Assembly (NCBI GenBank): GCA_000934665.2
Contig: JYFJ02002667.1
Location: forward strand, 1 to 53,024
Source: Catajapyx aquilonaris
Lineage: Eukaryota
Direction: 5' to 3'
DNA: 53,024 nt
Below, in pieces: positions 7,793-53,024 of this stretch. The position numbers were made by a program, and so were the translations under genes. The notes under the pieces are model-generated. The model was given only the letters and a program-made list of their open reading frames with translations, was not told where the DNA came from and searched no databases. Positions within the stretch are counted from its first letter, which is position 1. The number at the start of each line of letters is the position of its first letter.

Positions 7793-8103
7793 ACAAAACT
7801 CTAAATGCAATGTGCAATTAGTTTGAGACATCGGGACCGCAATGTGACGGACAGATCTATTCCGTAAGACATTTTTTCGATTGTGCGTGATAATTACTTC
7901 ACCCTGTACAGCAGACTTCACTTATAACAGACGTCAAGGGATGGCGGAAATTAGTCTCCTCTAACAGGGTCTGTCATAGCGTAACACACAGGACAGATGT
8001 GGTGTGCAGATATGCTGGGACCAACCTTTTCAGGTTGTTGTAACCAAGGGTATTATATCTAGAGTCAACTGTACTAGAACTGAATGTATTAAAATTGTAT
8101 CAT

Positions 8104-8205
8104 GCACATCAATTGCGCTGCTCCAACTGCAAGACATGCACCACATCTGTGTGGCGAAGGAACAATGGCAAGCCAGTGTGCTATGCTTGCGGACAGTACA
8201 CGTGA
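8104..8205 (+). pseudogene. GATA-type zinc-finger exon relic behind gene A
   Basis: [30 protein letters not shown]; acceptor AG mutated to AT; 3' part deleted relative to B/D. Confidence 0.7.
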
Positions 8206-16000: not shown

Positions 16001-19000
16001 CTTTGCTCCTTTGATTCTTCTAAGAGTAAGAAGGGATGCTGACAGGTTGTGTTTGGCATGAATGAGACGAGGATCCATTCAAAGTCTATGTGTCTTGGGC
16101 AGTTAGGGGGGCAGTTCAAAAGAATCGAAAAGGCACCCAGAATGTGTGCATTTTTAAATGCCAAAGTAATTATACTACATGACGCCACTGATATGCCCAC
16201 AAGGGATTTATTTTTTAAGACTACAGTAAAACTTCCAGAAGTCGAATCTCCATGGGACCGGAATTTTTTTTCGAGTTACAGAAGATTCCAGTTAGAGAAG
16301 TTTGGAATTTTTTAAGAGCCCTTACAATCGTCCCAAGGGGTGGTTAGGGGTGGGTAATCCGGAGGGGTTCGGGCGGGAGGGGAGGACAAACAGGACCTAT
16401 AAGACTTGAGGATTATAGGTCCGGTTTTTCCTCCCCTCCTGATTACGAACCCCTCACCATCCCCTGGACATGCATATTTGACCTAACATTGACAATATTT
16501 CTGATAACCATGTGACTGGTACATAGGCTACTGCTTAAATACATTTTAAAAACATGCTTACCCCTATTCAGAATTCAGTTTGAACATGCTCAAGTCTCTC
16601 AGTTGAGCTGTTGTTTCTCGTGCAAGAAAAGTGGTTGTAAAGATGGGTCCTTTTCAAAGGCCTCACATACATCGTTGCCTGCTTTCCAGGAAGAGACGTG
16701 CGGCAGTGACTCAGACTTGGACGACAAGGGTGAACTGACCACTGGTGTGAAACCTGTCGTCAAACACGCCTTTCACAATGGGAGAGCAGGAAGGAAGAGA
16801 GCACAAAGAGGGGTGGGGAGGAGAGTTTGACGCAAGACACAAATTCTAAAACTATTCCTTTTCAGGCCAATGTCCGTGAAGATGACTGCAGCGCAACAAA
16901 TTCAAAACCATCTCGACATGTTTCAAAACCAAAGTTGCAAAATGTAAGAACATTTGTACAGTGTTATGCAATAACGAGTCAACCCGCATGAGAACAGTGT
17001 TGTGGGAAAAGGGGCTTTGAAGGTCACAACTCTGGAATTAATTCACTGTCCTTTTCGGTCATTCATGGCAGAAGCATGCAGATTTCGCCAGCTTGCTTTT
17101 AACTTATTCCAGTGCGATCCTTTGGGCATCATGGGATTAACTCGATTTCGACATTTTTGTTGGTTGACACATTATTCCATGACACCTTCCATTTCGTCAG
17201 GAGTGACTTGTTGTGATTGCAGAGTTGCATTTCCCTCGACAAATTTGAGTGAATTCCCTGCCCGTTTAGGTGGAGGTGCCAACAAGAGGAAGGAAATCAA
17301 AACTGGTTGCTCAAGTTAAGATGAAGGAACAGAGTCAGGGAGGAATTGAGGACGCAATCACCGATGATGGCCTCAAGACATCCGGTGCGAAGGACAAGGA
17401 ACCAAAACGAATGGTAAAATTCATTTTCTGTCAAGGCTGATGAAATTCCTTTAAATAAAATATGCCAACTGAGGCTGTAAGATTTCCTCTCCTTTTAAAT
17501 ATCCATTGCAGCCGACCTCTGGAAAAGGGACAACCCGTAAGCCACGCATCCACTCACTGGCCTTCAAGGAAAAGGTGCTTGATGTCTACGAGTTTGACAA
17601 TTCAGAATGTCGTCACAATGAAAATGCAACTGCAAGAAAGTTTGGAATAAGCTCATTTGCTCTGAGGTATTGGGTGAAAGCCATGCGACCTCACCTCCTC
17701 GCCTGCAGACGAAAGGAAGATGCTCATCAGACGTCAAGCAATGGGACAAAGGTAAGCCTCATCAGATGATTAAGCAATGAGGATGTGGACTCCAGGTCAT
17801 AGGAAATAATTACCAAAGCTGCTGTATGCTTGAGTCCTTGAAAGAAAGAGCTCATGATTGTTGGATAGACAGTTATGTTCAAAATCGTTTGTTGTCCATG
17901 TCTTTTGCAGCCAAACTCAGGCGAACTGCAAATCCGCACATCGCAATACTCCCTGGATTTCAAGAAGAAAGTGCTGGAAGCCTACCAGTTTGGTGATTCC
18001 ACTTGTCGTCACAACACGGGTGCAACTGCTAGGAAGTTCGGATTACCAAAGGCAACAGTGATGTATTGGGTCAAGTTTCTCCTGCCCCGTCTCCTAGCCC
18101 GATCAGGCCAGAGTCTGGCCTACAAATCAAGACAAGGCAATCATGAATCTCATGAAATGAGGGTAAAGGAACTATTTTTATTATCATCATACATTTGTTG
18201 GGACTTGCTGAAATGCCAAGTCTATGGACTTCTCATATACAGGCTATAGTTTATTTCCCCCCGGAAAATGCAGGGCTCTCACAGGTTGGCAGCTTGTCAG
18301 GCATTATCGAGAGCTTCCGATTGGAGCCTAATGCACTGGCACCACAGGTGTATGTGGCAGCCTCTCCAGGCCCTCCAGGAACCACTTTTTGGTGGGGTAG
18401 CGTGCCCATTCCCGGACAACTGCTTCCTGTTCAACAATGTCCTCGAAATGGCAATGGCGAATGAGTTTTTCTACGGCTCTGAACAGGTGAAAGTCACTGG
18501 GGGCCAGTTCAGGGTAGTACGGCGGGTGTGGAAGCATCCACAACCAGATCCATGGAAACATCCCTTCACAGACACCATTTCAAGGACATTGATGACAGTT
18601 GTTGACTGTGTGCAGTTGTCCGGGAGAGGGTGCTTAGCATCATGAAATTGGTTCTTCGAAGGCCTGCAGGGGTGTGTCAATCGAAATTCCTTGTTAGCCC
18701 AGATATGCCGAGTGTCCCCTACAGGGGACACCTGCACAGTTGTTATATTTTAATTTTTTTGAGCTGGTTCTTCTGATGCTAAAGAGCTGGCAGTAGTCGC
18801 GGGTGATTCAGTAGAGTCCCAGCTAACGATGCAAGTTCAAACCTGCTCAAATATTGCTTCAGCTTTTTAAGATACAGGTGTTTGATTTTTAACGCAGGAA
18901 ATAATGGCTTCACCTCCACGTTCCAAATATGATTACCAATTAATTCTCAAATTTGATTAATGTTATGAGTTATGAGCGACACATTGAACTGGAGCTGCAG

Positions 19001-22000: not shown

Positions 22001-25000
22001 TAACGCACCCCTCACCATCCCCTGGACAATAGCGAAAGGCTCTTAAGTAAGTGAGCAAACAATAACAAGGGACATGCATATTTGACCTAACATTGGCAAC
22101 TAATATTTCTGATAACCATGTGACTGGTGCATAGGCTACTGCTTAAATACATTTTAAAAACATGCTTACCCCTATTAAGAATTCAGTTTGAACATGCTCA
22201 AGTCTCTCAGTTGAGCTGTTGTTTCTCGTGCAAGAAAAGTGGTTGTAAAGATGGGTCCTTTTCAAAGGCCTCACATACATCGTTGCCTGCTTTCCAGGAA
22301 GAGACGTGCGGCAGTGACTCTGACTTGGACGACAAGGGTGAACTGACCACTGGTGTGAAACCTGTCGTCAAACACGCCTTTCACAATGGGAGAGCAGGAA
22401 GGAAGAGAGCACAAAGAGAGGTGGGGAGGAGAGTTTGACGCAAGACACAAATTCTAAAACTATTCCTTTTCAGGCCAATGTCCGTGAAGATGACTGCAGC
22501 GCAACAAATTCAAAACCATCTCGACATGTTTCAAAACCAAGGTTGCAAATTGTAAGAACATTTGGACAGTGTTATGGAATTACGAGTCAACCCACATGAG
22601 AACAAAGTTGTGGGAAAAGGGGCTTTGAAGGTCACACCTCTGAAATTAATTCAGTGTCCTTTTCGGTCATTCTTGGCAGAAGCATGCCGATTTCGCCAGC
22701 TTGATTTTAACTTATTCCAGTGCGATCCTTTGGGCATCATGGGATTAACTCGATTTCGACATTTTTGTTGGTTGACACATTATTCCATGACACCTTCCAT
22801 TTCGTCAGGAGTGACTTGTTGTGATTGCAGAGTTGCATTTCCCTCGACAAATTTGAGTGAATTCCCTGCCCGTTTAGGTGGAGGTGCCAACAAGAGGAAG
22901 GAAATCAAAACTGGTAGCTCAAGTTAAGATGAAGGAACACAGTCAGGGAGACAGTGAGGACGCAATCACCGATGATGGCCTCAAGACATCCGGTGCGAAG
23001 GACAAGGAACCTAAACGAATGGTAAGACTCATTTTCTGTCAAGAACAGGATGAAATTACTTTAAAAAAACTATGCCAACTGAGGCTGTAAGATTTACTCT
23101 ACGTACTTTAAAATATCTGTTGTAGCCGACCTCTGGGAAAGGGACAATGCGTAAAAGAAAAGGCTACTCACTGCCTTTCAAGAATAGAGTGCTTGATGTC
23201 TACGAGTCTGACAATTCAGAATGTCGTCACAATGCAGCTGCAACTGCAAAAAAGTTTGGAATAGGCTCACGTGGTCTGAGGTATTGGGTGAAAGCCATGC
23301 GACCTCACCTCCGTGCCTGCCAACCAAAGGAAGATGCTCATCAGACGTCAAGCAATGCGACAAAGGTAAGCCTCATCAGATTATTAAGCAAGGAGGATGG
23401 GGACTCCAGGTCATCGGAAATAATTGCGAAAGCTGCTGTATGCTTGAGTCCTTGAAAGAAAGAGCTCGTGTTGGATAGACAGTTATGTTCAAAATCGTTT
23501 GTTTTCCATGTCTTTTGCAGCCAAACTCAGGCGAACAGCAAATCCGCACATCACAATACTCCCTGGATTTCAAGAAGAAAGTGCTGGAGGCCTACCAGTT
23601 TGGTGATTCCACTTGTCGTCACAACACGAGTGCAACTGCAAGGAAGTTTGGCGTAAATCAACCCACAGTGTGGCATTGGGTCAAGTTTCTCCTGCCCCGT
23701 CTCCTTGCCCGATCAGACCAGAGTCAGGCCTACAAATCAAGACGAGGCAATCATGAATCTGATGAAATGCGGGTAAAGGAACTATTTTTATTATCATCAT
23801 ACATTTGTTGGGACTTGCTGAAATGCCAAGTCTATGGACTTCTCATATACAGGCTACAGTTTATTTTCCTCCGGAAAATACAGGGCTCTCACAGGTTGGC
23901 AGCTTGTCAGGCATTATCGAGAGCTTCCGATTGGAGCCTAATGCACTGGCACCACAGGTGTGGCAGTTGCTCCAGGCCCTCCAGGAACCACTTTTTGGTG
24001 GGGTCGCGTGCCCACTCCCGGACAACTGCTTCCTGTTCAACAATGTCCTCGAAATGGCAACGGCGAATGAGTTTTTCTACGGCTCTGAACAGGTGAAAGT
24101 CACTGGGGACCAGTTCAGGGTAGTACGGCGGGTGTGGCATCATCTAAACCCGGATCCATGGAAGAATTCCCTTCACAGACACCATTTCAAGGACATTGAT
24201 GACAGTTGTTGACTGTGAGCAGTTGTCCATGAGCTGGTGCTTAGCATCACGAAATTGGTTCTTGGAAGGCCTGGAGATGTTGGCACAGCCGTGGTGCCAG
24301 TGCATTCGGCTCCAGGAGGATTCTATTGATAATGTGTGCCCAACTCAAAAATCGCTCCGATATCCGGCGCCCTTGAGCAAAACCCAATATTGCCCAAAAA
24401 ATTAATCGTATTGAGATATGCAAAACAGGCCTACTCTCGGCAGAGTAAGGCCTGTTACAAGAAAATGGATACAGATAGAAATATTTTGACTTCCAATTCA
24501 AACTCAGCGCATACTAATACTAACTAATACACAATAAAAAATGAAAATTGCTCATTTAACAAAACCATTGTTAATTGTTCATATATGAGGTGTGATCGAA
24601 AGTTCCCAGACTTTGTTCATAAAAACATTAATATTTACTTTAAGTCCTTAATTTCCACTGCCACCTTGGGCACGTATACAATGATCCCAGCGAATTTCCA
24701 ATTTTTGGAAGCACCCCAAAAAATTGGTCAACCATAGCTTGTTCAGCACCTGCTACGATTTTGCTTAGATCTCTTTAGTGGAGTCAGAATGGCTCCTTTT
24801 CTACCCAAATTTCATTTTAGGGAAGAGGTAGAAATCACATGGGGTCAGGCCAAGCGAATAGGAAGGGAAGGGAACAGTGGTCATGTTGTTTTTTTGTCTG
24901 GAAGTCCCTACTTGACGCGTGGGGTGTGTGCAAGAGGCATTGTCATGGTGCAGCAACCAGTCCCTGTTCTTTCACATCTCCGGCCATTTAGGCCTACGTC

Positions 25001-28000: not shown

Positions 28001-30906
28001 ATGTTCAAAGGTGTTTGTTTTCCACCTCTTTTGCAGTCAAACTCAGGCAATCTGCATATCCGCACCTCATCTCATTATTCACTGGATTTCAAGAAAAAAG
28101 TGCTGGAGGCCTACCAGTTTGGTGATTCCACATGTCACAATGCAGCTGCAACTGCAAGGAAGTTTGGCCTACCCCAACCAACAGTGAAGCATTGGGTCAA
28201 GTTTCTCCTGCCCCGTCTCCTTGCCCGATCAGGTCATAGTCAGGCGGACCAATCAAGACGAGGCAATCATGAATCTCCTGAAATGAGGGTAAAGGAACTA
28301 TTTTTATTATCATCATACATTTGTTGGGACTGGCTGAAATGCCAAGTCTACGGGCTTCTTGTCTACCGTGTGCAGTTTATTTTCCCTTCAAAATTACATG
28401 GCTCTCACAGGACAGGTGCCATTTCGTGGCAATTGCAACACCCGTCCTGTTAAGGTTTGAAACAATAATTATTATCAATCATTATTGATCCTGCAGTGTT
28501 TAGGCTTAACAATTGTAAATCTGCGTTGATGGTCAAGTTTGAATTCGGTAGGCCGCAATCATGAAAAGCCAATCACCATGCTGGATGTCAGTTTGCTTAT
28601 TTTTGCTCGCTGTTTGACGAACATCCAAATTTGCCACCTTCTGCATGACAGTCCCATTTACACACTTGATTGGTTAGTGTGCCAGGGGTATCAACAGACC
28701 TTTCACTCTCTCCCGCCAATCAATTGTTGGCGATGCACCTTTGCCAAGGCGCCAGGAGCCCACCCACCCCGCCCGCCCTACCCCACCCTCCTTGTAAGGT
28801 TCAGATAAACTCTAGATCAGCCCATGTGATTTTTCTGGCAGTGATTAGGCCAGGCCCTCCACAGGTCTCTGAATGGAGACGTCACACCAGTTTATTTCTG
28901 CCTGGTTTCAGGAAGAGGAGTTACACGAGAGGGACAAAGAAGCGAGAGTAGGGAAATCAAAACTGGTTGCTCGATTCAAGTTGATGGGACAGAATCAGGG
29001 AGGAAGTGAGGACCTCAACACATCCAGTGCCAAGAAGAAGGAACCAAAGCCAATGGTAATAATTCCTACACATGCAGATTAGTCACTATAGTTATATGTA
29101 GATTGAATAGTTATTCCCCTTTAAAGAAGTCAAATTTTCCGAGCAATATTTTCCAAGAAACTGCAAAATATGATCTAATATGCTTATTCCAGCTAAATTA
29201 TATCAGTGAGGGGAAGGGATAAATGTTTTTATTACCACACTGTGTGTCTCTGTTGGGACTTGCTGAAATGCCAAGTATCTGAACTTCTTCTCTACGGGCT
29301 GCTTTTGCTCCTTTGTCTCTTCTCGACGTAAAGATGAGTTTTCATGTGAGCGATTTGAGCGGTAACATCGCTGAGTAACCTGAGTAACCAGTGTTGTTGG
29401 AGGAGAAAGTAGATTGTTACTTTCACCTCAAACAATGTTGGTTACTTTGCATGTCAAGTCACTCTCATGTAAACGCATCTTATGGGGAAGGAAACACAGG
29501 ATGGGGACAGGTTGTGTTTGACATGAATGGTGCAGAACTCCTTTAAAATTCTTGCACTTTGGTGCACTTTAGCCCTGCAAAAATATTGCAGGTTTCTATG
29601 GATTCCCTTAATGTACTTGATGAGCCGAGTCGAGCCTCTTGCTTACCAACAAGTGTTGCCCTAAAAGCCATCTTGTGATTGTCGATTATCATTCAAGGCA
29701 TGTATTCCACCGCTGACTTTGTGGCTGTTGTCTGCGTGGCGTTGGAGTGACAGAACCGGTACTGCCCGTCTTGTGGGCCAGCCAGGCATGGTATGTCACC
29801 TGGTGTGATGATATTAGTTAATTGGGGGCGTTAGCGAGCAGGGCACTTATTGTGGGTTGTGTAGTCAAGTATATTGAGGAAGAATATTGAAACCTGCAGA
29901 AAGAAGATAAAGAAAGAGTTTGCAGGGGCCAGTTGTCCTCTTCAGGTGACAGTCCAAGGAGACCGTGATGTTGTAATAAACACTTAGCTGCCTATCCGGC
30001 CATCAGCGTACTCGACGTTTCTCCCCACTACATTTTTTAAATGCCTTGATCCAACGAGTGCCTCATGAGTGAGAATCAATCTTGTCTCTTCCATCACCTG
30101 TGCAGCCTACTTCAGGTGGAGCGAGAGGACGCCAGTCACGCTACTCACTGGATTTCAAGGAGAAAGTGATGGATGCCTACGAGTTTGGTGATTCCAAATG
30201 TCGTCACAACGCATATGCAACTGCAAAGAAGTTTGACTTAAACATAGGAATGGTGTGGTATTGGGTGAAGGTCCTCCGACCCCATCTCCTGGCCTCCCCA
30301 GCCCAGAGTCAGACGTGCCAACCAAGGCGAAAAGCTGATGAAAGAACAAGGGAGGAAACAAAGGTAAGCAAGCGACTCATCAGATTACCTAGTGATGGCT
30401 GGAAAAGCGCATAAACCCAGACGACAAAAGAATGTATCTGTCCAACCGTACTATGGCAGCCATTATTATTTTATTATAACTTACAAATGAAGGAAGTGCA
30501 GAGTTACTGTCAATGATGCAATTAAATTGGTAACCACTACAAACATTCCACATTAAGAACATGCTCTAATTTTGTGTTCGGTAGTAGACTAGAGAATTTG
30601 CAAACTGGAAAGTTGTATGATCTTAATATCATTTTTCATTCATTTCCTGTGCAGCCTCCCCAGAAGGAAGCGGAACCCTCTGGGTCCCTCACCCAGTCGA
30701 TGGACTTGAAGAGGAAGGTGCTGGACGCATTCGAGTTTGGAGATTCCTCATGTCGTCACAACCTGGAAGCAACTGCCAGGAAATTCTGTCTCAGCACCAC
30801 CACAGTGTGGTACTGGATCAGATACATTCGACCCCACCTCCTCTCCAAGAGTCAGATGAATCCACCAAATCAAAACTCTGATGAAAGGAATGGTGGTACA
30901 AAGTAA
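9651..30906 (+). CDS. Gene B: C2H2-ZF + 18 Brinker-type HTH domains, ~35 coding exons, ~2,200 aa if all are included
   Basis: ZF exon 9651-10010. Linker exons 13216-13389, 13442-13519, 13612-13755 (GC donor), 16690-16812, 16866-16943, 17270-17413, 19082-19255, 19308-19385, 19475-19618, 22298-22420, 22474-22551, 22878-23021, 26829-26951, 27005-27076, 27393-27536, 28912-29055. 18 BrkDBD exons listed separately. All phase 0 and open. Confidence 0.75.
10271..10737. mobile_element. MITE with ~65-bp TIRs
   Basis: TAGAGGGGACCAAGACAAG...CTTGTCTTGGTCCCCTCTA; internal GTTGCCAGGTTATGGC repeats. Confidence 0.75.
12447..12750 (+). mobile_element. Merlin / ISXO2-like (IS1595 family) transposase relic
   Basis: GRIESPGHVVMEIIDET; WASYNGVKAVGYNHQLTVSRTLHFVDPVTCANTRAIQS; HLAKFQWRR resemble Merlin motifs GGPGxxVEIDE, HxTVNHSxxFVDP, YLxEFxWR. 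Confidence 0.7.
13874..14113 (+). CDS. BrkDBD exon B1 (type I)
   Basis: 240 nt; GISACAVTYWVK. Confidence 0.8.
14275..14529 (+). CDS. BrkDBD exon B2 (type II)
   Basis: 255 nt; GLHQQTVRKWVK. Confidence 0.8.
14620..15165 (-). mobile_element. Mariner relic interrupted by ~250-bp hairpin MITE (14814-15073)
   Basis: Shares sequence with mariner copies at 2520 and 25000; GGTTTTTGCACAGCTAT...ATAGCTGTGCAAAAACC inverted arms. Confidence 0.65.
15268..15507 (+). CDS. BrkDBD exon B3 (type I)
   Basis: 240 nt; GIGDCTVSRWVK. Confidence 0.8.
15659..15868 (+). CDS. BrkDBD exon B4 (type II; alternative donor after 15916)
   Basis: 210/258 nt; GLKGITVWSWVK. Confidence 0.75.
17512..17751 (+). CDS. BrkDBD exon B5 (type I)
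   Basis: 240 nt; GISSFALRYWVK. Confidence 0.8.
17911..18162 (+). CDS. BrkDBD exon B6 (type II)
   Basis: 252 nt; GLPKATVMYWVK. Confidence 0.8.
18260..18670 (-). mobile_element. Mariner transposase fragment
   Basis: LPHPPYYPELAPSDFHLF. Confidence 0.8.
19736..19975 (+). CDS. BrkDBD exon B7 (type I)
   Basis: 240 nt; GMSFSLVRYWVK. Confidence 0.8.
20134..20388 (+). CDS. BrkDBD exon B8 (type II)
   Basis: 255 nt; GIPQQTVWKWVK. Confidence 0.8.
20480..21015 (-). mobile_element. Mariner relic + hairpin MITE (duplicate of 14620-15165)
   Basis: Near-identical to 14620-15165; LPPGKSVDVKSYCDGLRR. Confidence 0.65.
21120..21359 (+). CDS. BrkDBD exon B9 (type I)
   Basis: 240 nt; GIGDCTVSRWVK. Confidence 0.8.
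21511..21720 (+). CDS. BrkDBD exon B10 (type II; alternative donor after 21768)
   Basis: 210/258 nt; GLKGITVWSWVK. Confidence 0.75.
23126..23365 (+). CDS. BrkDBD exon B11 (type I)
   Basis: 240 nt; GIGSRGLRYWVK. Confidence 0.8.
23521..23772 (+). CDS. BrkDBD exon B12 (type II)
   Basis: 252 nt; GVNQPTVWHWVK. Confidence 0.8.
23870..24340 (-). mobile_element. Mariner transposase fragment
   Basis: MPHPPYYPELVPSDFHLF...LPHLWCQCI. Confidence 0.8.
24584..25479 (-). mobile_element. Internally deleted mariner element with both TIRs
   Basis: TA-TGAGGTGTGATCGAAA ... TTTCGATCACACCTCG-TA; minus-strand EQMICIKFCFQLNKT and MLIIFFDVIGFVHREFPPPGETVN. Confidence 0.85.
25991..26230 (+). CDS. BrkDBD exon B13 (type I)
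   Basis: 240 nt; GISDCTVSRWVQ. Confidence 0.8.
26403..26612 (+). CDS. BrkDBD exon B14 (type II)
   Basis: 210 nt; GVPQGTVRQWGK. Confidence 0.75.
27639..27878 (+). CDS. BrkDBD exon B15 (type I)
   Basis: 240 nt; GISSRGLRFWVQ. Confidence 0.8.
28037..28288 (+). CDS. BrkDBD exon B16 (type II)
   Basis: 252 nt; GLPQPTVKHWVK. Confidence 0.8.
30106..30363 (+). CDS. BrkDBD exon B17
   Basis: 258 nt; DLNIGMVWYWVK. Confidence 0.8.
30655..30906 (+). CDS. BrkDBD exon B18 (invariant terminal domain)
   Basis: CLSTTTVWYWIR; ends in TAA. Confidence 0.8.
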   Translation, partial: PPQKEAEPSGSLTQSMDLKRKVLDAFEFGDSSCRHNLEATARKFCLSTTTVWYWIRYIRPHLLSKSQMNPPNQNSDERNGGTK

Positions 30907-31173
30907 ACAAATCTCTAAATGCAATGTGCAATTAGTGTGAGACATCGGGACCACAATGTAAAGGACAGATCCATTCCGTAAGACTTTTTTTTTGATTGGG
31001 CACTAAAATTACTTCACCTTGTATAGCAGACTCCAGTAGTTATAACCAAGGTTTGTCATATTGTAACACACAGGGCAGATGTGGTGTGGACCAACCTTTC
31101 GAGACTGTTGTATCCAGGGCTATTATATCAAGCGTCAACTGTACTAGAACAGAATGTATTAAAATTGCATCAG

Positions 31174-39000: not shown

Positions 39001-40632
39001 TTCCTCATGTCGTCACAATGTGATGGGAACTGCAAAGAAGTTTGGCTTAAACAGAGGTAATGTATGGGTTTGGGTGAATCACCTCCAGCCACGTCTCCTT
39101 GCCTCCTCGGGCCAGAGTCAGAGGAACCAACCAAGGCGAGGAACTCTTGAAAGGACAAGTGACGAAGCGAGGGTGAGGATGTGACTGTTTCTATTGCCAC
39201 ACTCTTGTTGGGGCTTGCTGATATGACGAGTTTCTAAACTTCTTTTTCTGTGGGGTGCTTTTAGTCCTTTGTCTCTCATCAGAGTAAGGGGAAGTAAGGG
39301 GGCTTTGGTGCACTTGAGCCCCTCAAAAATATTGAGTGTTTCTATAGATTTCCTGAATCTACGTGATGAGCTGAGTTGATTGATACTATACGTATGTTGC
39401 AGAAACCTTTGGTTCAAAAGTTTTGGACTTTTGAAATTGCAATGAATTAACAATCAGTCAACAAAAGTTGTTGTGGCCTTGCCAGGGCCACCTCACGCAG
39501 CATCAACAGCTACTGTGCCACACAACCGCCAGTAATGTTGTGGATGCACAGCCTACAAATTACTTTTCAAATTACGATGGGAATGCCCTCATGCAACAAC
39601 AGGAGTAAACAGTTTCAACAAAGGAACACCGATTTCTTGTCATTCGTTGATTGTTAATTAAGTGCAATTTCAAAACTCAATAATTACTCTTGAAGGAAAC
39701 GTTTCTCCACCCTAGGGATAGTGCCAGTCGACTCAGCTCGTCGAGTAGACTCAGGAAATGTATGGACACCTGCACTGTTTTTGCGGGGATAAAGTGAACC
39801 CTTATCGACATGTTTTCATATCTCTCCTGGCTGACCTTCTATCTGAATCTGCCTGAAGTGAGCTTGAAACCATTCTTCAGCTGTAACTTAATCTTCAAAG
39901 AACTCATGTGTTCATGATGGTTGGTTCCAGAAGAAGACGAGATGTGGTAATGCCAACTCAGGTGACCTCGCACCAGATGGGGAACAGGCATCCAAGTCAA
40001 CGTTGCCTGCTGAGGGAGAAAAACCGAAGGGAGTGCAAAAGAAGGTAAGACCAGATTTTGTAGGAGGGAGGAACGAGTAAAAGTGATCCTCTTCAGATGA
40101 TGATTCAAGGAGATCATGATATTATAATAAACTCTTAGCTGCATATCCGGCCATCAGCGTACTCTCTGTTCCAAAAGAAATGGAGGAGCAAAATGCAGAT
40201 TTCCAGACAATAAAATGATGCACATATTCCACCCAACATTTGCAGCTAATAAGTGTGATAACATTAAAACGTAACTGATCCAAGGTTACTGCTTATCATG
40301 CAAAAAAAGATTTGTTAACTGCACATATGTGTGATATTTGAATTGCTTTTGTTGCCCTTCCTGTGCAGCCTCCCCAGAGGGAAGCGGAACCCTCTGGGTC
40401 CCTCACCCAGTCGATGGACTTGAAGAGGAAGGTGCTGGACGCATTCGAGTTTGGAGATTCCTCTTGTCGTCACAACCTGGAAGCAACTGCCAGGAAATTC
40501 TGTCTCAGCACCACCACAGTGTGGTACTGGATCAGATACATCCGACCCCACCTCCTCTCCAAGAGTCAGATGAATCCGCCAAATCAGGACTCTGCTGGAA
40601 GGAGGAATGACGGAACAAAGGTGGGGAAATAA
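32705..40632 (+). CDS. Gene C: C2H2-ZF + 7 Brinker-type HTH domains
   Basis: Exons 32705-33070, 34516-34689, 34743-34820, 34911-35054, 35170-35409, 35571-35780, 35986-36192, 36912-37151, 37316-37525, 38912(or 38924)-39172, 39931-40044, 40369-40632; phase 0, open. Confidence 0.78.
33098..33725. mobile_element. piggyBac-like non-autonomous element
   Basis: TTAA|CACTTAACTACC ... GGTAGTTAAGTG|TTAA plus subterminal GTATTTTTCTACCCCAC inverted repeat. Confidence 0.8.
34288..34409. mobile_element. PIF/Harbinger-like MITE
   Basis: TTA|AGGCCATTTCAC...GTGAAATGGCCT|TTA. Confidence 0.7.
35170..35409 (+). CDS. BrkDBD exon C1 (type I)
   Basis: 240 nt; GIDSKTVRLWVK. Confidence 0.8.
35571..35780 (+). CDS. 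BrkDBD exon C2 (type II)
   Basis: 210 nt; GLPQGTVWKWVK. Confidence 0.75.
35986..36192 (+). CDS. BrkDBD exon C3 (type II)
   Basis: 207 nt; GLHQRTVWQWVK. Confidence 0.72.
36579..36700. mobile_element. pogo/Tigger-like MITE (paralogous copy 47093-47196)
   Basis: GGATAATCGGG(G)TTCTACTGTA terminus; same intronic position in C and D. Confidence 0.6.
36912..37151 (+). CDS. BrkDBD exon C4 (type I)
   Basis: 240 nt; GIDESAVRRWVK. Confidence 0.8.
37316..37525 (+). CDS. BrkDBD exon C5 (type II; alternative donor after 37573)
   Basis: 210/258 nt; GLPRVTVMQWMK. Confidence 0.75.
37952..38110. mobile_element. PIF/Harbinger-like MITE
   Basis: TAA|GGCCGGGTTGCACCGGCTCC...GGAGCCGGTGCAACCCAGCC|TAA. Confidence 0.8.
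38912..39172 (+). CDS. BrkDBD exon C6 (canonical acceptor mutated)
   Basis: GLNRGNVWVWVN; acceptor ATTACGG vs ATTACAG in paralog D4. Confidence 0.6.
40369..40632 (+). CDS. BrkDBD exon C7 (invariant terminal domain)
   Basis: CLSTTTVWYWIR; stop at 40632 or donor AAG|GTGGGG after 40620. Confidence 0.8.
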   Translation, partial: PPQREAEPSGSLTQSMDLKRKVLDAFEFGDSSCRHNLEATARKFCLSTTTVWYWIRYIRPHLLSKSQMNPPNQDSAGRRNDGTKVGK

Positions 40633-43510: not shown

Positions 43511-43807
43511 ATGAGTCTCCACCAGCCCCACCGTGGCCCGCTAATAAGCAGCATGGCCACCGAAGAAGGGCAGTTCAGGTGCGTCTACTGCCTGGACGCC
43601 ACCTTCAGAACGAGGCTGCAGCTGCTGTGCCACCAGTTCATACACGGGCCTGGAGACACTGTGAAGGTGGAGCCGAAGGAGGATGCCGCAGAGGCGGTCG
43701 TAACAATGTTGGAGACGGAGAGACGTGAAGGAGGGGATCAGTCGCACCAGAAGGAGGAACCTTCATTCGAATTCATTTCAATTGGAGGCTGGCCTGGACA
43801 GGGGGAG
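43511..43807 (+). CDS. Gene D first coding exon: C2H2 zinc finger
   Basis: FRCVYCLDATFRTRLQLLCHQFIH; donor GAG|GTGAGG. Confidence 0.8.
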
Positions 43808-46800
43808 GTGAGGGTCGGTTCATTAAAATGGCCTACCCTCCATACTTGGCATGGGAATGCCCAGGGGCGGGGGCAAAATTCCCCGGGCCCGCGTGACCCG
43901 GTAGTATAATATTAATAAGAGATGGATTTCCAGAAGGAAAGTATAAAAAGTGAGACACGATCGTAAATGGGGCAGCAGCGACTGATTTCCTTGGGAATGT
44001 TATGCCTTAATGCCACTCTTGCCCTGAAATTGAATTCCGACGACATCACTGACAGAATTCGCCCTGGATAGGAAGGCCGGACAAGTTGAGTTGACCAAGT
44101 AGTGCGCATGGGTATGTCTTATGTGCATCAGTGCATACAGGAATCACATGAGAAGATCAAGTATTTCATGTGCTGCATTCCAACAGTTTTGCCATCCTGG
44201 ACCAATTTGCCATAATTTACATACGGCTACTACAAAATTGTCGAAAGTTACCGGGTTATCGCTGCCTCGCCATATCTGTAATATGTTTGCGTGGACAGTA
44301 AATACAGCCTACGACTGATTATTATGGGAGTCCGGATTTTTAGGCAAATGCCTATTTAATTCATTAACAGTTGGGATGGTTTTGTGAAGAGATCTATTCA
44401 TTTCATAAGTGCCGAATGCGGGGAATGTAGGTTTTATAGTGCCTATAATGGCCTATTTCGTGGTTTTGGTTGACTTTCTGCGACTTTTCATGCCTACTTG
44501 GCCTTTTTTGGGATGGTTTTTGAACTTTTTGAGGCGATTTTGAGACTTTTTTTTGAAAAAATTCCAATTTCAGGACTTTTTGGGCTTATTTCTTCATATG
44601 CATGTTTGGTTTTTTTTAAAGAGTTTTTTTTGTGCTCCTGAAAGGACCAAAATGGTTCAGAAGTAATACTACAAGTCATGTTTGTGTGGCGCTTATGCCA
44701 AATATTTTTCTTAATTTTCCTCTTATTGTTCCAACCAGAGGAAAATTTAGAAAAATATTTGGCAACATATATTGTGCAAGTGGAAACTGGCTATACCCGG
44801 TAATAGAGTCCAGCACAAGTGATACTTGTTTGCACTGTGTGTCTTTTGCCCAAGTTTCCTAATTTCCTGTCGGTTGTTCGGGTTATGCTCTGGTTTGTGA
44901 CCTTACATTCATACTTATAAAATTATTCTAGCTTTTTTATTTTTGGTAACATTATCCTCCAGTATTTAAAAATGTGTGCCTATTTGAGGGTTTATTCGTG
45001 CCCATTTCTGGGTTTTTTCGTGCCTAAAAATCCGGACTCTACTGATTATGTTTCCCGATATAATCCCACTGCCTTTTTCTTGCGGACAGCAATTTCGAAC
45101 GAAAATGTTTAACTGTCACTGTCTGTATTTGAGCGAAGGGGGCCTGAATCTTTGTCGTCCATGGGGCAAGGCTCGACATGTCTCTGGCCCTGGCCATGCC
45201 AGTATGGTCTGTTTAAATATAAACCCTAGGGATGAATGAATGTTAATTGAACTGTCCTGAATGTAAAGTATACAACCTCATTAGAAATTATTGTGATGTT
45301 AGCTGAAGCTAATCCAGCAACGCATTCAACTTCAGCTTCAGAGCTTGTAATGCCATGAAATGAGGGCAATGCAAATGGACAGAAATGTTCACTGAACCTA
45401 TGGTATTTAAAAATTTAATGTGGTATTGCAGGGAGTCGAAAGTGTAAGAGCAGAGCAGCCTGATGTGATGGAAACAGGAGATGAAGACACATGTGGGAGT
45501 GACTCCGACATGGATAGCAGGGGTGAAATCCAGGCTGGTGTGGAACCTGCCCCCAAACGCACCATTCCTGAGGAGAGAGCAGGAAGGAAGAGGACGAAAA
45601 GAAAGGTGAGATGAGAGTTTGTAGCGAGACACAAATTCTGAAACTCTTCCTTTTCAGGTGACTGTCCAAGAAGACGAGTACGGTACAAGAAATTCAAAAG
45701 CATCTCGAGAAGTTTCAAATCTCAGTTTAAACAACGTAAGAGAACACTGCATCAGGAATGACATGTTGTGATTCCACAGTTGCATTTCTCTTTGCAAAGT
45801 TAAGTATAATCCCTGCATGTTTAGGAGGAGGTGCCAGCGAGAGAATCAAAGCTGCTTGCGCGGGTGAAGATGATGCAGCAGAGCCAGGCAGGCAGTGAGC
45901 GCACGATTCTAGCCGATGACCTCAAGACATCCAGTGCAAAGGACAAGGAACCAAAACCAATGGTAAGCCTCACTTTCCGTCATGGACTGGACGAAAATAC
46001 GCTTCAAAAAATTTATGGTACAGACCTACCTTGAGCAGATGAGGTCATATTTCCTCTACTTTTAAATATCCGTTTCAGCCGAACTCTGGAAAGGGAAAAA
46101 CCAGTAAGCAAAACAGCTACTCACAGGCCTTCAAGAATAAGGTGCTCGATGTCTACGAGTTTGACAATGCCGAATGTCGTCACAATTACGATGCAACTGC
46201 ACGGAAGTTTGGAATAAGCGCATGTGCTGTGAGGAATTGGTTGAAATCCATGCGACCTCACCTCCTTGCCTGCCGAGCAAAGGAAGATGCTCATCAGATG
46301 TTAGGGAATAGGAAAAAGGTAAGCCTCATAAGATTATTTATAAGCAAAGAGGAAGATGGATTCAAGATCACCGGTAGTAATTACTAAATCTGCCACATAC
46401 CCCATCAGTGCTGGGAAGAAAGAGAGCGAGATTGTCTTGACAATATAATATTATGTTCAAAATGTTTGTTTTCCACCTCTTCTGCAGCCAAAGGCAGGGG
46501 AACTGGAAATCCACGCGTCATATCGTTACTCCCTGGAATTCAAGAAGAAAGTGCTGGAAGCTTACCAGTCTGGGGACTCCAAATGTCGTCACAATGGAGC
46601 TGCAACTGCAAGGAAGTTTGGTGTACCCCAACAAACACTGTCGAAATGGGTGAAGTTTCTGCAGTCCCGTCACCTTCTCCAATCAGCCCAGAGTCAGGTA
46701 CGTACCAATCAAGGCCAGGCACTCGTGAAAGGAGAAGTCACGACAGGAGGGTAAATGAACTATTATTTTCCTAAATCACCACACTTCTGCTGGTAGTTGC

Positions 46801-49800
46801 AGAAATGCCAATTCCATGAAATGTGGGTTGCTCTTTGCTCCTTTGATTCCCTCCGAATAAGAAGGGATGCTGGCAGGTTGTGTTTGGCATGAATGAGACG
46901 AGAATCCATTCAAAGTCTGTGTGTCTTGGGCAGTTAGGGGAGCAGTTTCAAAAGAATCGAAAAGGCACCCAGAATATGTGCATTTTTAAATGCCAACGAT
47001 GCAAACTTATGCAAAGTAATGTTATACCACAATATGAAGCCAGTGATATGCCCACAAGGGATTTATTTTTAAAGATTATATTATTTTGGTTATACAGAAG
47101 AACCCGATAATTCGATCTCTGATTATCCGAGGCCCTTTTATGTGCTCCGACCATGGCTTGATCCCGTGGGTGACGGATAATCGGGGTTCTACTGTACATG
47201 TTTTTTGAATCCCTCTGGGCTCACATTTCTCACCCCTACATTTTTCACTTCGTTTGGGCCAACAAGTGTGCTCCTAGTCAGAGGAGATAGACTAAATATA
47301 CACCTTGAATTTTCCACCACCTTTGCAGGAAATCAAGGGGAGTGGGAAAAGATGTAGATCACACTCTCTGGACTTTAAAAATAAAGTTCTGGATGCCTAT
47401 GAGTTTGGTGATTCCTCATGTCGTCACAACCAGAGCGCAACTGGAAGGAAGTTTGGCTTAAACCAAGGAATGTTGTGTAGATGGGTGAAGCGGCTCCGAC
47501 CCCATCTCCATGGCCTTTCAGCCCAAGGTCAGATGCACCAACCACAACAAGATGCTGATGAAATAGCAAATGACAAAACAAGGGTAAGAATTTGACTCTT
47601 AACATTACTCAGTGATGGCAGAAAAAAATGTAGAATCGAGAGAAAGGAGACCAAAACTGGTTGCTCCGGTTAATGTGATGGGACAGAGTCAGGGAGACAG
47701 TGAGGACACAATCCTTGCTCACGAGCTCAACACATCCAGTGCAAAGGACAAGGAACCAAAACCACATGTAATAATTCCTTCATATGCAGGATAGTCTCTA
47801 ATAATATATAGATTGAACAGTTATTCTGCTTTAAAGAAGCCAAATTCGCCAAGCAATATCATACCACTAATTCCCTAATTCTGTGACGATGCTTTTATGT
47901 CCCGTCAACACTCATTGCCTTGATATAGTAACCATGGTTGATCACTTATGCCGTTCATTAGACGCCACATGGCGGTCAGAAAATGTGGGTTCCACTTCAG
48001 TGGAGGCGAGACACGTACTGATCATCATACCACTAGAAGCCTTATCCTCTCTGTATGCTTGTACTACTAATCCCCATATTCTCTCCGTCTGGCCCTGCTG
48101 AAATTGTTTAAGTGAATTTAAAGCTCAGCCATTTGCGGAATGCATTTAAGCGGCAAAATGTCAGGTGTGTCCAACCCCTCATATAGGGCTCATTATTCCC
48201 CACACTGGGGCTAAATTGACTTCGGAAAACACGGAATCCTTTTCTAGCATGGCAATTCTCTGCCGTACTTATGAAGATGTATACATCAAATCAATGCAAA
48301 AGTTAATTGCATTTTGGAGGGGGAGAGTCAAAGCTATACCTAAGCCCAGACTCTTTGATCACAGAAGACAATGAGGATATGTAAGATTACCATGCCGAAT
48401 TTCTGACATGTTTGCCGAAAATACGATGGCAACTTTATCTGGAATGGATGTTACATGAGTGTGTGACAGATTCCTTTTCCTTCATAAGGAGGAAGAAATT
48501 GTGTAGAAGAAACTATGCTAACATGACCAGTGACGTTAACTTGACAAGTGATTATGTAAGATTTTAATTTCGTAATATAGCATATACGTTTATATTACAG
48601 CCAATTTCTCAGGACAGGACAATCCACAAGAGATGCGTCTACTCCCTGGCTTTCAAGAGAGAAGTTCTGGAGGCCTACCAGTTTGGTGATTCCTCATGTC
48701 GTCACAATGTGATTGCAACTGCAAAGAAGTTTGGATTAAACAAAGGAACGGTGTGGTATTGGGTGAATCGCCTCCAGCCACGGCTCCTTGCCTCCTCGGC
48801 CAAGAGTCAGAGGAACCAACCAAGGCCAGGCACTCGTGAAAGGACAAGTGACGAAATGAGGGTGAGGATCTGACCGTTTCTATTGCCACACTTTTGTTGG
48901 GACTTGCTGATATGAGAAGTTACCAAACTTCTTTTTCTGTGGGGTGCTTTTTGCCCATTAGTCTCTTATCAGAGTAAGGGGAAGAAAAAAAAATGTATGC
49001 TGATAGGTTGTGGTTGACATGAATGAGGCAGAAGTCCATAAAAATGCTGGGCTTTGGTGCTCATTAGTCCCACAAAAATATTGCATGTTTCTTTAGATTT
49101 CCCGAATCTACTTGAGGAGCTGAGTCGAATGATTCTATTCGTAGGTTGCAGAAACTATTGGTTCAAAAGTTATTGAGTTCTGAAATTGTAATGAATTAAC
49201 AATCAGTCAGCAAACATTGTTGTAGCCTTGCCAGAGCCGCCTCACGCAACATCAACATCTACTGCGCCACACAACCGACAGTAATGTTGTGGATGCACAG
49301 CCTACAAATTACTTTTCAAATTACAACGGGGATGCCCTCATGCAACAACAGGAGTGAACAGTTTCAACAAAGGAACACTGGTTTATTTTCATTTCATTCA
49401 TTGTTAATTAAGTGCAATTTCAAGATTCAGTTGCCCTGGAATGAATCGTTTCTCCACCCTAGGGATAGTGCCAGTCGACTCAGGAAATGTATGGACACCT
49501 GGAATATTTTTGCGGGGATAAAGTGCACCCTTACCGACGTGTTTTCCTATCTCTCCTGGCTGACTTTCTTTCTGAAGCTGTCTGCAGCAAGCTTGAAACC
49601 ATGCTTCAGCTGTAATTTAATGTTCAAAGAACTCATATGTTCCTATGGTTGGTTCCAGAAGAAGACGAGATATGGTAATGCCAACTCAAGTGACCTGGCA
49701 CCAGATGGGGAACAGGCATCCAAGTCCACGTTGCCTGCTGAGGGAGCAAAACGGAAGGGAGCAGAGAAGAAGGTAAGGCCAGATTTTGTAGGAGGGAGGA

Positions 49801-50453
49801 ACGAGTAAAAGTGATCCTCTTCAGATGATGGTTCAAGTAGACAATGATATTACCATAAACACTTAACTGCCTATCCAGCCATCAGCGTACTTTATGGGCA
49901 AAAGAAATGGGGGTGCAAAATGCAGATTGCCCGACAATAAAATGATGCACATATTCCACCCAACATTTGCTGCTCATAAGTGTGATAACATTTAAATGTA
50001 ACTGATCCAGAGTTACTGCTTATCATCCAAAAGAAGATTTGCTAACCACTCTTAAGAATTCACATGGAACATGCTGCAGAGTTATATGCAGAAATGATTC
50101 GGATAGTTGCAAACTGCAAACTTATGTGATTAATAAATTGCTTTTTTTTTCCACTTCCTGAGCAGCCTCCCCAGAAGGAAGCGGAACCCTCTGGGTCCCT
50201 CTCCCAGTCGATGGACTTGAAGAGGAAGGTGCTGGACGCATTTGAGTTTGGAGATTCCTCGTGTCGTCACAACCTGGAAGCAACTGCCAGGAAATTCTGT
50301 CTCAGCACCACCACAGTGTGGTACTGGATCAGATACATTCGACCCCACCTCCTCTCCAAGAGTCAGATGAACCCGCCAAATCAGGACTCTCCTGGAAGGA
50401 GGAATGACGGAAACAAAGATGAACGAATAATTACTAAATGCAATAAGCAATAA
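43511..50453 (+). CDS. Gene D: C2H2-ZF + 5 Brinker-type HTH domains
   Basis: Exons 43511-43807, 45432-45605, 45658-45735, 45825-45962, 46079-46318, 46488-46697, 47329-47583, 48601-48861, 49659-49772, 50166-50453; phase 0, open. Confidence 0.78.
44323..45041. mobile_element. hAT-like non-autonomous element
   Basis: GAGTCCGGATTTTTAGGCA / TGCCTAAAAATCCGGACTCTA TIRs; CTGATTAT repeated on both flanks. Confidence 0.65.
46079..46318 (+). CDS. BrkDBD exon D1 (type I)
   Basis: 240 nt; GISACAVRNWLK. Confidence 0.8.
46488..46697 (+). CDS. BrkDBD exon D2 (type II)
   Basis: 210 nt; GVPQQTLSKWVK. Confidence 0.75.
47329..47583 (+). CDS. BrkDBD exon D3
   Basis: 255 nt; GLNQGMLCRWVK. Confidence 0.8.
48601..48861 (+). 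CDS. BrkDBD exon D4 (absent from ORF track)
   Basis: 261 nt; YSLAFKREVLEAYQFGDSSCRHNVIATAKKFGLNKGTVWYWVN. Confidence 0.8.
50166..50453 (+). CDS. BrkDBD exon D5 (invariant terminal domain)
   Basis: CLSTTTVWYWIR; stop at 50453. Confidence 0.8.
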   Translation, partial: PPQKEAEPSGSLSQSMDLKRKVLDAFEFGDSSCRHNLEATARKFCLSTTTVWYWIRYIRPHLLSKSQMNPPNQDSPGRRNDGNKDERIITKCNKQ

Positions 50454-50702
50454 TTAGTGTGAGAGGTCGGGACCGCAATGTAACTGACAGATCCATTCCA
50501 TAAGTCATTTTTTCGATTGGACGTGATAATTACTTCAACCTGTGTAGCAGACTCCAGTTATAACCGAGGTTTGTCATAGCTAACACACTGGACAGATGTG
50601 GTCTGGAGATATGCTGGGACCAACCTTTTCAGACTGTTGTAACCAAGGCAATTATATCTAGCATCCACTGTACAAGAACTGAATGTATTAAAATTTCATC
50701 AG

Positions 50703-50870
50703 GCACATCAATTGCGCTGCTCCAACTGCAAGACATGTAGTACCACATCTGTGTGGCGAAGGAATAATGGCAAGCGAGTGTGTAATTCTTGCGGCCAGTA
50801 CTTCAAAGTGTATGGTACGAATCTGACTCTGACCCAAGCGAAGAATGTCATCAAAAGTTATAGCTGGTGA
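50703..50870 (+). CDS. Intact GATA-type zinc-finger exon behind gene D
   Basis: [64 protein letters not shown] = C-x2-C-x17-C-x2-C with WRR; phase-0 acceptor. Confidence 0.6.
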   Translation, partial: AHQLRCSNCKTCSTTSVWRRNNGKRVCNSCGQYFKVYGTNLTLTQAKNVIKSYSW

Positions 50871-51140
50871 TAATAATAATAGTTCTCGGCTACAATTCTG
50901 ATGACAACATTACATCAAGACTACAGGTAAAATGAGTGCTTGGTGCAGTCGAAGTCCTAGTTGCGAAATTCTTCACGTAGAATTTCCCAGTGACGCACCA
51001 CTCACCATGCCTTTACCCGATGGAACCTTGGAAGACAAGTGACTTGTAGTACTTAACGCATTGGAGTCGAGGAAGTGCTGATCCCCTGCTTCATCGTTGT
51101 GTGATGTTGTACCATTTTTGTGCCTTTGTATTTTATACGC

Positions 51141-51376
51141 GGATTCCAAAGTCCCCTAAGTCCATTTTTGTTGTTTTGAGAAATTTGAGATTTTATTGGT
51201 ATCAATAACATGGGATTATATGGGATTTGAGAAAACTCTCTGATTTTTGCGCTTGGAGTTAGGGACATCATTTTGGTGTGTTCTGACCTCGGGAGGAGGA
51301 GGGGAGTACCATAAGCTACCAACAGATGCCATCAGCTCATTTTTCATGAAAATGGACTTAGGGGACTTTGGAATCC
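51141..51376. mobile_element. MITE with 28-bp TIR
   Basis: GGATTCCAAAGTCCCCTAAGTCCATTTT...AAAATGGACTTAGGGGACTTTGGAATCC; absent at the paralogous sites (~8270, ~31615). Confidence 0.75.
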
Positions 51377-51939
51377 CACTCTTATTATGAGAACAAATAA
51401 TGCGCTTCCTGAGGGTGCTGGAACTTGAATGATCTCATTCAGCCAGTAAATATCTGACTTGCTCTGGAAACAAACTGTGTTTCATTTTCATGGCTTTACA
51501 TGTTGTGGAGTCCCCGCAACTGATGGATCCCTCCTCTGCCTGCACACCTATACGTGGAGCAACGAACATGAATGTATGACCTTGCAGCAATCACGGAATT
51601 TCCCCAATCAATGTTTGGACTTCTGTGTGGCTTTTCCACCTTATTGCCTGACTACAGCAACCAGGGCTGTGACCTTGACCTTCCAATAACTGCAGCATGG
51701 AATGTTCCTCCAGTTCATCTCATCACACCCAATGATTAGTTAAAAACTTATATTATTATTTTTAAGTGTGTGTTTGTTTTTTTTACTGTCAAACTCCATA
51801 TGTAAGCTGCATCAAAGTGTGACAATAGGGGTTGCGGGTTGGGTTTGTCATGAAAGCCTCCTCCTGCTGTCGCCATATGTTTAGCAGACGATTTGGGAAG
51901 AAATGAACTGATGGGCATAACCGACAGCCTTTTCAACAG

Positions 51940-52223
51940 GCGCCACCTTCAGGACCAGGCTGCAGCTGAGGGCACACCAGTTCATACACGGACCAAGGGA
52001 CGAGGTCATGGTTAAGCCTGAGGTGGATGCGGCAGAGGGAAGGGTGGTCGTGACAATGGTGAAGAAGGAGAGACGTGAAGGAGGGGATCAGCCGCAAGAG
52101 GAGGAGGAGGAAGAGTCCATCTTGAACTCCGGTGGTGGTGACGACCCTCCAGGAGATGCTGAACCTTCATTCGAATTCATTTCCATTGACGACTGGCCTG
52201 GACGGAACAGGGCACGTGCCGAG
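51940..52223 (+). pseudogene. Gene E first exon, 5'-truncated (promoter, ATG and both ZF cysteines deleted)
   Basis: ATFRTRLQLRAHQFIHGPRDEVMVKPE...PSFEFISIDDWPGRNRARAE|GTGAG is paralogous to the B/C/D ZF exon. Upstream sequence jumps from the equivalent of ~9148 to ~9730 of gene B. Confidence 0.7.
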
Positions 52224-52928
52224 GTGAGGGTCCCTTCATGGCGGAGATGCAAAATTGGCAGCCCTTCAGTACGCTGCGTGTCCAGGTCACTATTGCCTGT
52301 CTATAATATTTAAATGCTTGCGTTGCTTGGCCGAGCCCTCTGATTGGTCTGTCGCCGCGTATTGTTGCTTCCACCTCCCCATTGGTCCCCGTTCATTATT
52401 ACATAAAAGCATTGTTACCATGACGCCTCCGACTGGCCCCCCTTCCGAGCATGCGCAATGGGTGGGAGAACGCCACAGTCGCTTGCTGGACGTCAACGAG
52501 GACAGGTCATTCTCCTCTCCCGTGAAGACCCCTCTGCCCCTTCCACCTTCCTCCGCCCGCACGTCTTCACGGTGACCTCACAACAGGGGAGGATAAACAA
52601 GGTCCTTACTGGCATCCCCACTGGGAAGATTAACCGCGATATTCAACACTGAACCTGGGGATAGGCCGAGAACGTCAAAAGAAAGTGGCGGGAAGAGTTA
52701 AACCAGTTTTTGATCATCTAATATCTTCTGCGTGGACTGACCAGTCACCAGAAGAGTCATTGTAATGGTCATATGAGACGGCCAGGCACAAACTAGTTGT
52801 CGCTGGCTACCCCATGTCTGGGATTATGCCGTGATGTTATGAATGAGTGAATGAATGAATAATATTACAGTAAGACTTCTATAAGTCGAATCTCCATGGG
52901 ACCGGAAAAAACTTCGAGTTATAGAAGA

Positions 52929-53024
52929 CTAGCAGCGGTACCCGTTCTTCGCACGGGGAAAGAAAAGGGCGTGGAGAAGTACCAAAAACTTCTCAGGCAA
53001 TATTAAAAGCAAAACTGCTCAATC
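52929..53024 (-). mobile_element. Helitron-like 3' terminus
   Basis: Minus strand CCCGTGCGAAGAACGGG hairpin followed by CTAG|T; degenerate copy near 32068. Confidence 0.55.

Follow-up and report, generated by a model that had tools for sequence, protein, structure and literature searches.

In this study, we examined a GATA-type zinc finger exon lying behind gene D in a contig of Catajapyx aquilonaris; the window, that is, the whole stretch of DNA analysed, comprises 53,024 nucleotides. This exon is probably, though with a margin of doubt, a relic, the former last exon of an ancestral Brinker-GATA gene, which would have been disabled independently in each unit of a gene array and which, in unit D, would have been stranded in the 3'UTR by the loss of a splice donor. 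We read the window as a tandem array of animal genes, each apparently composed of a C2H2-like first exon, phase-0 exons with one Brinker-type helix-turn-helix (HTH) domain apiece, and short basic linker exons. The ancestral gene most likely carried an additional phase-0 exon at its end, encoding a divergent copy of a GATA-1/2/3-class C-terminal finger, and the donor of the last Brinker exon (AAG/GT, the slash marking the splice boundary) would have been joined to the acceptor cag/G. After duplication of the units, this terminal exon would have fallen out of use, and each unit appears to have lost it in a different way. In unit D, the donor would have been lost by a GT>AT change together with an inserted A, so that translation would end at the TAA at 50451-53. 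The finger exon would now be found about 250 bases beyond this stop, in the transcribed but untranslated tail of the mRNA.

The array character of the window is apparent from its repeated exons. The C2H2-like first exon recurs at about 9.6, 32.7, 43.5 and 51.9 kb, with many exons encoding one Brinker HTH in between, and one particular Brinker exon closes every unit (7484-7792, 30526-30906, 40342-40632 and 50130-50453). The exon model of gene D was built from phase-0 AG/GT pairs and contains the following elements:

43553..43807, plus strand: first coding exon with a single C2H2-like motif, from ORF and model, boundaries predicted
46079-46318, plus strand: BrkDBD exon, Pfam BrkDBD 38.2 bits, phase-0 AG/GT boundaries predicted
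46488-46697, plus strand: BrkDBD exon, Pfam BrkDBD 35.0 bits, phase-0 AG/GT boundaries predicted
47329-47583, plus strand: BrkDBD exon, Pfam BrkDBD 24.3 bits (47296 ORF), phase-0 AG/GT boundaries predicted
48601..48861, plus strand: BrkDBD exon, Pfam BrkDBD 26.6 bits (48568 ORF), donor verified by contig
49659..49772, plus strand: basic linker exon of 38 codons, both ends in phase 0, joints 48861>49659 and 49772>50166
50166..50453, plus strand: last BrkDBD exon, ending in TAA at 50451-50453, acceptor verified by spliced contig

Four of the five BrkDBD exons score above the Pfam cut-off for this family (PF09607, 23.4 bits). The last one (50130 ORF) stays under it with 14.2 bits and shows clear paralogy to exons scoring 24-38 bits. 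When compared with the ESM Atlas, this last exon retrieved only generic bacterial and viral HTH clusters, with scores <= 0.86. The C2H2 motif of the first exon is a C-x2-C ... H-x3-H-like pattern recognized by eye in the units, and the exon at 43553-43807 matched no Pfam family at E <= 0.1. The residues preceding the first His of this motif differ in D from those of the other units.

The finger itself is delimited by two features:

50703..50870, plus strand: GATA-type finger exon of unit D, 55 codons plus TGA, supported by the ORF, Pfam and exact contigs; the best-preserved copy
50718..50792, plus strand: Cys4 core C-x2-C-x17-C-x2-C, found by a regex over six frames and by alignment to GATA-1/3

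The open plus-strand frame extends from 50643 to 50870, with 55 codons between the acceptor and the TGA at 50868-50870. An earlier note on this DNA had described a canonical C-x2-C-x17-C-x2-C GATA finger behind a phase-0 acceptor and had proposed a Pfam scan as a check. The scan bears this description out: the exon matches the GATA family PF00320 with 34.3 bits (E 1.8e-08, profile positions 1-35 of 36), above the curated gathering cut-off of 26.8 bits, and the cag of the acceptor stands in phase with the finger. The best solved-structure matches in phmmer are GATA-1 (3vd6_C, E 5.5e-18) and GATA-3 (4hc7_A, E 6.2e-18). Of the two fingers in each of these chains, the C-terminal one gives the higher score, with 42.1 and 41.5 bits, respectively, against 27.8 and 29.0 bits for the first. 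Moreover, the alignment to GATA-1/3 spans query residues 5-51 and continues uninterrupted past the finger. As judged from these alignments, the finger of D is truly homologous to GATA fingers and no chance arrangement of Cys residues.

The word "canonical" holds for the spacing of the ligands, but not for the rest of the finger. Relative to GATA-1/3, the 17-residue loop of D arises through one additional residue before the W and one residue fewer after the RRN. In addition, D reads C-N-S-C-G-Q-Y where all the aligned solved fingers have C-N-A-C-G-L-Y, with Leu replaced by Gln; the A>S change within CNAC arose on the D branch. Behind the finger, the R-P and two basic positions are gone, and the frame stops four codons past the aligned part. 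The basic segment directly behind the finger is needed for DNA binding by the C-finger of GATA-1. Compared with this DNA-binding C-finger module, the D exon falls short in its basic post-finger segment. A stand-alone small gene at 50643-50870 was also considered and was ruled out, as the open frame contains no Met codon. On the minus strand, the ORF at 50691-50909 matched no Pfam family.

The signals between the last Brinker exon and the GATA exon are central to the relic reading:

50410..50424, plus strand: former donor, GGAAACAAAG/ATGAAC in D versus GGAACAAAG/GTGGGG in unit 40k
50687..50692, plus strand: ATTAAA, 11 bases upstream of the acceptor, present at the same place in units 30k (31158-31163) and 7k (8088-8093)
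50700..50702, plus strand: cag acceptor, in phase 0 to the finger frame, with 9/17 pyrimidines in its tract

That the last exon of gene D ends in a stop and that its donor is mutated had already been noticed from the sequence, and both observations were confirmed. When aligned to unit 40k, the AAAG/ATGAAC of D reveals a GT>AT change plus one extra A that shifts the phase. Unit 40k keeps a consensus phase-0 donor (AAG/GTGGGG) at the end of its last Brk exon, three codons before the stop, and units 30k and 7k read AAG/TAAAC at this position. No GT is present in D between 50363 and the stop codon. An in-frame cryptic donor in the last Brk exon was likewise ruled out, as the only phase-0 GTs (50228 and 50315) lie inside the HTH domain. 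Both upstream exons, 48601-48861 and 49659-49772, end in phase 0. Since the donor of D reads AT, is shifted by +1 and is followed by no GT up to the stop, only exon skipping from 49772 or 48861 fits an entry at 50703.

On the acceptor side, D and 30k keep the phase-0 cag/G. The tract before 50703 is weak, with pyrimidines at 9 of 17 positions as compared with 11/17 and 13/17 at two transcript-verified acceptors. The phase-0 donor surviving in 40k fits the phase-0 acceptor surviving in D and 30k, which is the chief argument for a former splice between Brinker and GATA exons. None of the units now retains donor, acceptor and GATA exon all intact. The ATTAAA at 50687 is the only AWTAAA on the plus strand between the stop of D and 53002 (about 2.5 kb). 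It may represent a poly(A) signal, perhaps one competing with the old acceptor; the contigs continue past it.

The window contains four copies of the GATA exon. Their position within the unit is constant: each follows the last Brk exon at a distance of about 250-300 bases and precedes the first exon of the unit that comes after. Besides the copy of D, these are:

8104..8205 (about), plus strand: GATA exon of unit 7k, with the acceptor AG changed to AT, an x16 loop, and a deletion after the fourth Cys plus four residues
31174..31338, plus strand: GATA exon of unit 30k, with an open frame, Cys1 and Cys3 changed to G and R, and 3 bases missing in the loop
40904..41064, plus strand: GATA exon of unit 40k, with insertions of 4 and 2 bases, TAG and TGA in frame, and the first Cys codon changed

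Only D keeps the four ligands, the open frame and the AG acceptor together, and the exon is disabled in all three of the other in-window copies. In the Pfam scan, the 30k copy reaches 20.6 bits, below the GATA cut-off, and the 7k copy 27.7 bits over profile positions 1-29 of 36 only. The deletion of 7k corresponds to D 50802-51071 (270 bases), and this unit has the same three-base deletion in the loop as 30k. Over this stretch, unit 40k is only about 72% identical, with indels. The identity of about 50% to GATA fingers, the retention of the Cys residues, the W, the RR and the core, and the in-frame compensating indels suggest that the exon was once coding. From the paralogues, we infer that it was coding while spliced to the Brinker exon.

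Transcript evidence comes from one public run (X1, share of words 0.21), which covers part of the locus as assembled contigs and for which the library type is unrecorded. The run behaves as cDNA, with spliced contigs and with depth 0 in the bins inside introns at 48025-48359 and 49030-49364. A 321-base exact contig joins 48861>49659 and 49772>50166, both with GT..AG. At the finger, a 383-base exact contig (depth 11.4) spans 50350-50732 unspliced, passing through the stop, the supposed intron and the acceptor, and a 162-base exact contig (depth 6.7) covers 50708-50869. The summed depth, which pools paralogues, stays at 16-26 up to about 51374. Among the 15 of 27 joints examined, none enters 50703 in the contigs of this run, which drop rare isoforms. 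The same run contains 30k-type contigs, with an ATA insertion at 50869, and 7k-type contigs, with the joint 50801>51072 bearing four letters in between and with three bases left out at 50739. The presence of contigs with these differences indicates that the relics of other units are transcribed as well. Altogether, the contig pattern fits a 3'UTR position of the GATA exon of D.

Rates of change were compared by Fisher tests on a three-way alignment of D, 30k and 7k, in which the GATA exon was counted to 50801. The Brinker core of the last Brinker exon was delimited in four units:

50166-50390, approx. 30654-30878, 40372-40596 and 7545-7769: Brinker core

On the D branch, changes were found at 4 of 96 positions of the GATA exon, 16 of 237 of the intron and 3 of 225 of the Brinker core. 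No difference between the GATA exon and the intron is apparent from these counts (p 0.45), whereas the Brinker core differs from the intron (p 0.004). Over all branches, the corresponding counts are 13/96, 53/237 and 11/225, and the Brinker core differs both from the intron (p 3e-08) and from the GATA exon (p 0.01). Counted in this way, divergence is slightly lower in the GATA exon than in the intron (p 0.07), which speaks against the relic reading. Between D and 30k, identity amounts to 91.4% in the exon, 85.2% in the intron and 93.8% in the non-coding stretch 50871-51100, and the exon differences are distributed 6/4/4 over the codon positions. The Brinker core is 95.6-97.3% identical in the six unit pairs, as compared with 38-87% for flanks and introns; its variable sites are distributed 4/2/7 over the codon positions. 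The conservation of the last Brinker exon would reflect either unusually strong purifying selection or local gene conversion. In these alignments, the constraint seen on the neighbouring Brinker exon is not visible on the GATA exon.

When the whole exon is considered (165 bases, with 40k as the outgroup), five substitutions fall on the D branch. Three of them are synonymous (codons 21, 27 and 31) and two are non-synonymous, namely the A>S change in CNAC and one in the tail. If a quarter of the changes were expected to be synonymous, this proportion corresponds to a rough binomial p of about 0.10, a weak hint of residual constraint drawn from too few events to decide. The small number of D-branch substitutions accounts for the intact appearance of the D exon, as neutrality usually leaves as much.

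To look for relatives, the GATA exon was compared by HMMER with 1.84 billion representatives, yielding 2720 proteins at E <= 0.001, of which 383 lie at E <= 1e-10. The 150 matches listed are about 40-57% identical, and most of them show two matched stretches, like ordinary two-finger GATA factors. A Pfam scan of 14 of the 15 best among these 150 (P0001-P0013 and P0015) identified GATA in 13 of the 14 and BrkDBD in none of the 14. P0003 is an odd low-complexity match without GATA. Word-index protein searches with the GATA exon and with the last Brk exon as queries found no homologue. Literature searches for BrkDBD together with GATA found no paper, and the excerpts available for papers on BrkDBD alone contain no link between the two. 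Expansions of BrkDBD-encoding genes in pufferfish genomes have been described, with no GATA link in the excerpt available (PMC4263296). Within these searches, the ancestral Brinker-GATA architecture that we propose seems to be undescribed.

The relic reading has to be weighed against three other explanations. According to the earlier note, any upstream phase-0 exon could splice to 50703 and so use the finger as an alternative last exon. The D copy would then be live: in a certain tissue or stage, the joint 49772>50703 would skip the last Brinker exon, and the product would combine the C2H2-like motif, four BrkDBD domains and the GATA finger. The phase-0 ends at 48861 and 49772 on which this proposal depends are verified, and D keeps the phase-0 AG, so a skipping isoform is mechanically possible. 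D alone, moreover, combines a complete set of ligands with an open frame, an AG acceptor and a GATA score exceeding the Pfam cut-off, and the ratio of three synonymous to two non-synonymous changes on its branch points in the same direction. We nevertheless regard a live exon as quite unlikely. The unspliced exact contig crosses 50703 and no joint among the 15 of 27 enters it; the acceptor follows a weak pyrimidine tract and stands 11 bases behind the ATTAAA; and the exon that would have to be skipped is the most conserved of the unit. Furthermore, the D-branch rate shows no difference from that of the intron, and with only five substitutions an intact exon is not informative. As the paralogues demonstrate, the GATA exon is dispensable, and in D itself CNAC has become CNSC and the basic segment behind the finger is degraded and shortened. 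The two observations that the earlier note had named as telling against its own proposal, namely no reads splicing into 50703 and neutral evolution of the exon, were both made, to the extent that the contigs of one run bear on the former and the in-window paralogues on the latter. We infer no present coding role for the D exon. As for the union of C2H2, multiple BrkDBD and GATA folds that the note had envisaged in one protein, the BrkDBD exons and the GATA homology hold, the C2H2 part is without Pfam support in D, and a present-day protein is not upheld; the three-fold architecture most plausibly belonged to the ancestor and has since been lost. In a weaker form of the proposal, a Brinker-GATA fusion of the array ancestor may survive intact elsewhere in the genome or in related species. 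If the live reading were true, the combination of multiple Brinker HTH domains with a GATA finger would be a transcription-factor architecture that we did not find described.

A second explanation, unlikely but more plausible than a live exon, is that the founder unit acquired, behind its last exon, a piece of a GATA-1/2/3-class gene or mRNA that never coded there, was passively copied and is decaying, with the phase-0 AG being coincidental. The continuation aligned behind the finger in D presumably belongs to the next exon of canonical GATA genes; if so, the GATA piece is intron-less and came from a processed transcript or has lost an intron. According to the excerpt available from Gillis and co-workers, animal GATA genes share two introns that separate first-finger, second-finger and 3' lysine-rich exons, such that a conserved intron follows the second-finger exon (PMC2857956). 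The uninterrupted similarity from the finger into the following segment (query 5-51) supports a captured fragment, with or without a later coding use. It is also in line with a never-coding fragment that all copies are non-functional or unspliced today, and that no BrkDBD-GATA protein was found in the 14 of the 15 best matches scanned among the 150 listed or by the word-index searches. On the other hand, the homologous stretch starts within five codons of the first Cys, right behind an AG and in the usual phase of the gene, and in unit 40k the last Brk exon ends precisely at a phase-0 GT donor of consensus type. The retention of ligands and core at about 50% identity argues for a long coding period, possibly in the donor gene. 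Finally, the stretch might act as RNA or DNA, either as a 3'UTR element of D-type mRNAs or as an upstream control region of the next unit, with the reading frame being a historical accident. Its transcription in at least three units and the better conservation of 50871-51100 than of the exon between D and 30k (93.8% versus 91.4%) would agree with such a role. We hold it to be very improbable, as 7k has lost 270 bases of the stretch, 40k is only about 72% identical with indels, no Rfam family matches anywhere in the whole window, and there is no specific pointer to such a function.

Comparison with known systems places the D exon closest to the C-finger of vertebrate GATA-1/2/3 (3vd6, 4hc7, 1gat and 3dfv). 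It shares with this finger the Cys4 arrangement with 17-residue spacing, and it keeps C-x-N-C, T, W-R-R-N, G and V-C-N-x-C-G-x-Y-x-K. Unlike GATA-1/2/3, the D exon is found without an N-finger, behind a Brinker-domain gene, and is apparently unspliced. The upstream exons of gene D resemble Drosophila Brinker (PF09607) in that each encodes one BrkDBD-type HTH. Brinker has a single BrkDBD domain and is not known to carry zinc fingers, whereas gene D has five BrkDBD domains, one per phase-0 exon, within a tandem gene array. TRPS1-type proteins combine one GATA finger with C2H2 fingers, and TRPS1 is not known to have HTH domains. As a mixed-domain factor in which a GATA finger shares a protein with C2H2-type fingers, TRPS1 is comparable to the proposed ancestor of the array; the sequence relation is limited to the GATA finger, and unlike that of TRPS1 the D finger is probably untranslated now. 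For Drosophila serpent, isoforms with one or two GATA fingers produced by splicing are reported in the excerpt available (PMC8844375). On the strength of this excerpt, serpent provides a precedent for inclusion or skipping of a GATA finger exon, the mechanism put forward in the earlier note. The serpent isoforms, both documented, come from a gene that is itself a GATA gene, whereas no spliced form of the D exon was seen in the contigs.

In its present state, the GATA finger exon of the window is a domain exon in ordinary decay. Should the relic reading hold, it ought to be left out of the coding model of gene D. More generally, a domain ORF that looks "intact" behind a stop is expected by chance in a young tandem array when substitutions are few. 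Under the relic reading, the locus would illustrate, on a small scale, exon shuffling as a source of domain gain and loss, with one ancestral terminal exon and four distinct lesions in four units, beside a Brinker exon kept at 96-97% identity.

Several further observations were made along the array. The first exon of unit E (51780-52000) has lost its 5' part: its similarity to other units begins only behind the Cys pair, and unrelated sequence stands where the start codon and the C-x2-C of the C2H2-like motif would be expected. This may mean that unit E is a pseudogene, or that it is translated from a different start. The stretch from the first exon at about 9.6 kb to the GATA relic at 31.2 kb (9.6-31.3 kb) forms a unit of about 22 kb with many more Brinker exons than the other units. 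It contains near-duplicate stretches, such as 16516-16830 and 22124-22438, which suggests either internal segmental duplication within one gene or that first exons are missing from some units. Contig depth is very high at 44340-44674 (77.8) and 52715-53024 (54.6), with many short joints and loose ends, as might be expected of an interspersed repeat that is expressed or occurs in many copies. At 51150-51430, a short motif occurs on both strands, and the same peptide-like strings appear in the ORFs 51053-51331 (minus strand), 51216-51434 (minus strand) and 51244-51390 (plus strand); this motif is probably a small inverted or dispersed repeat.
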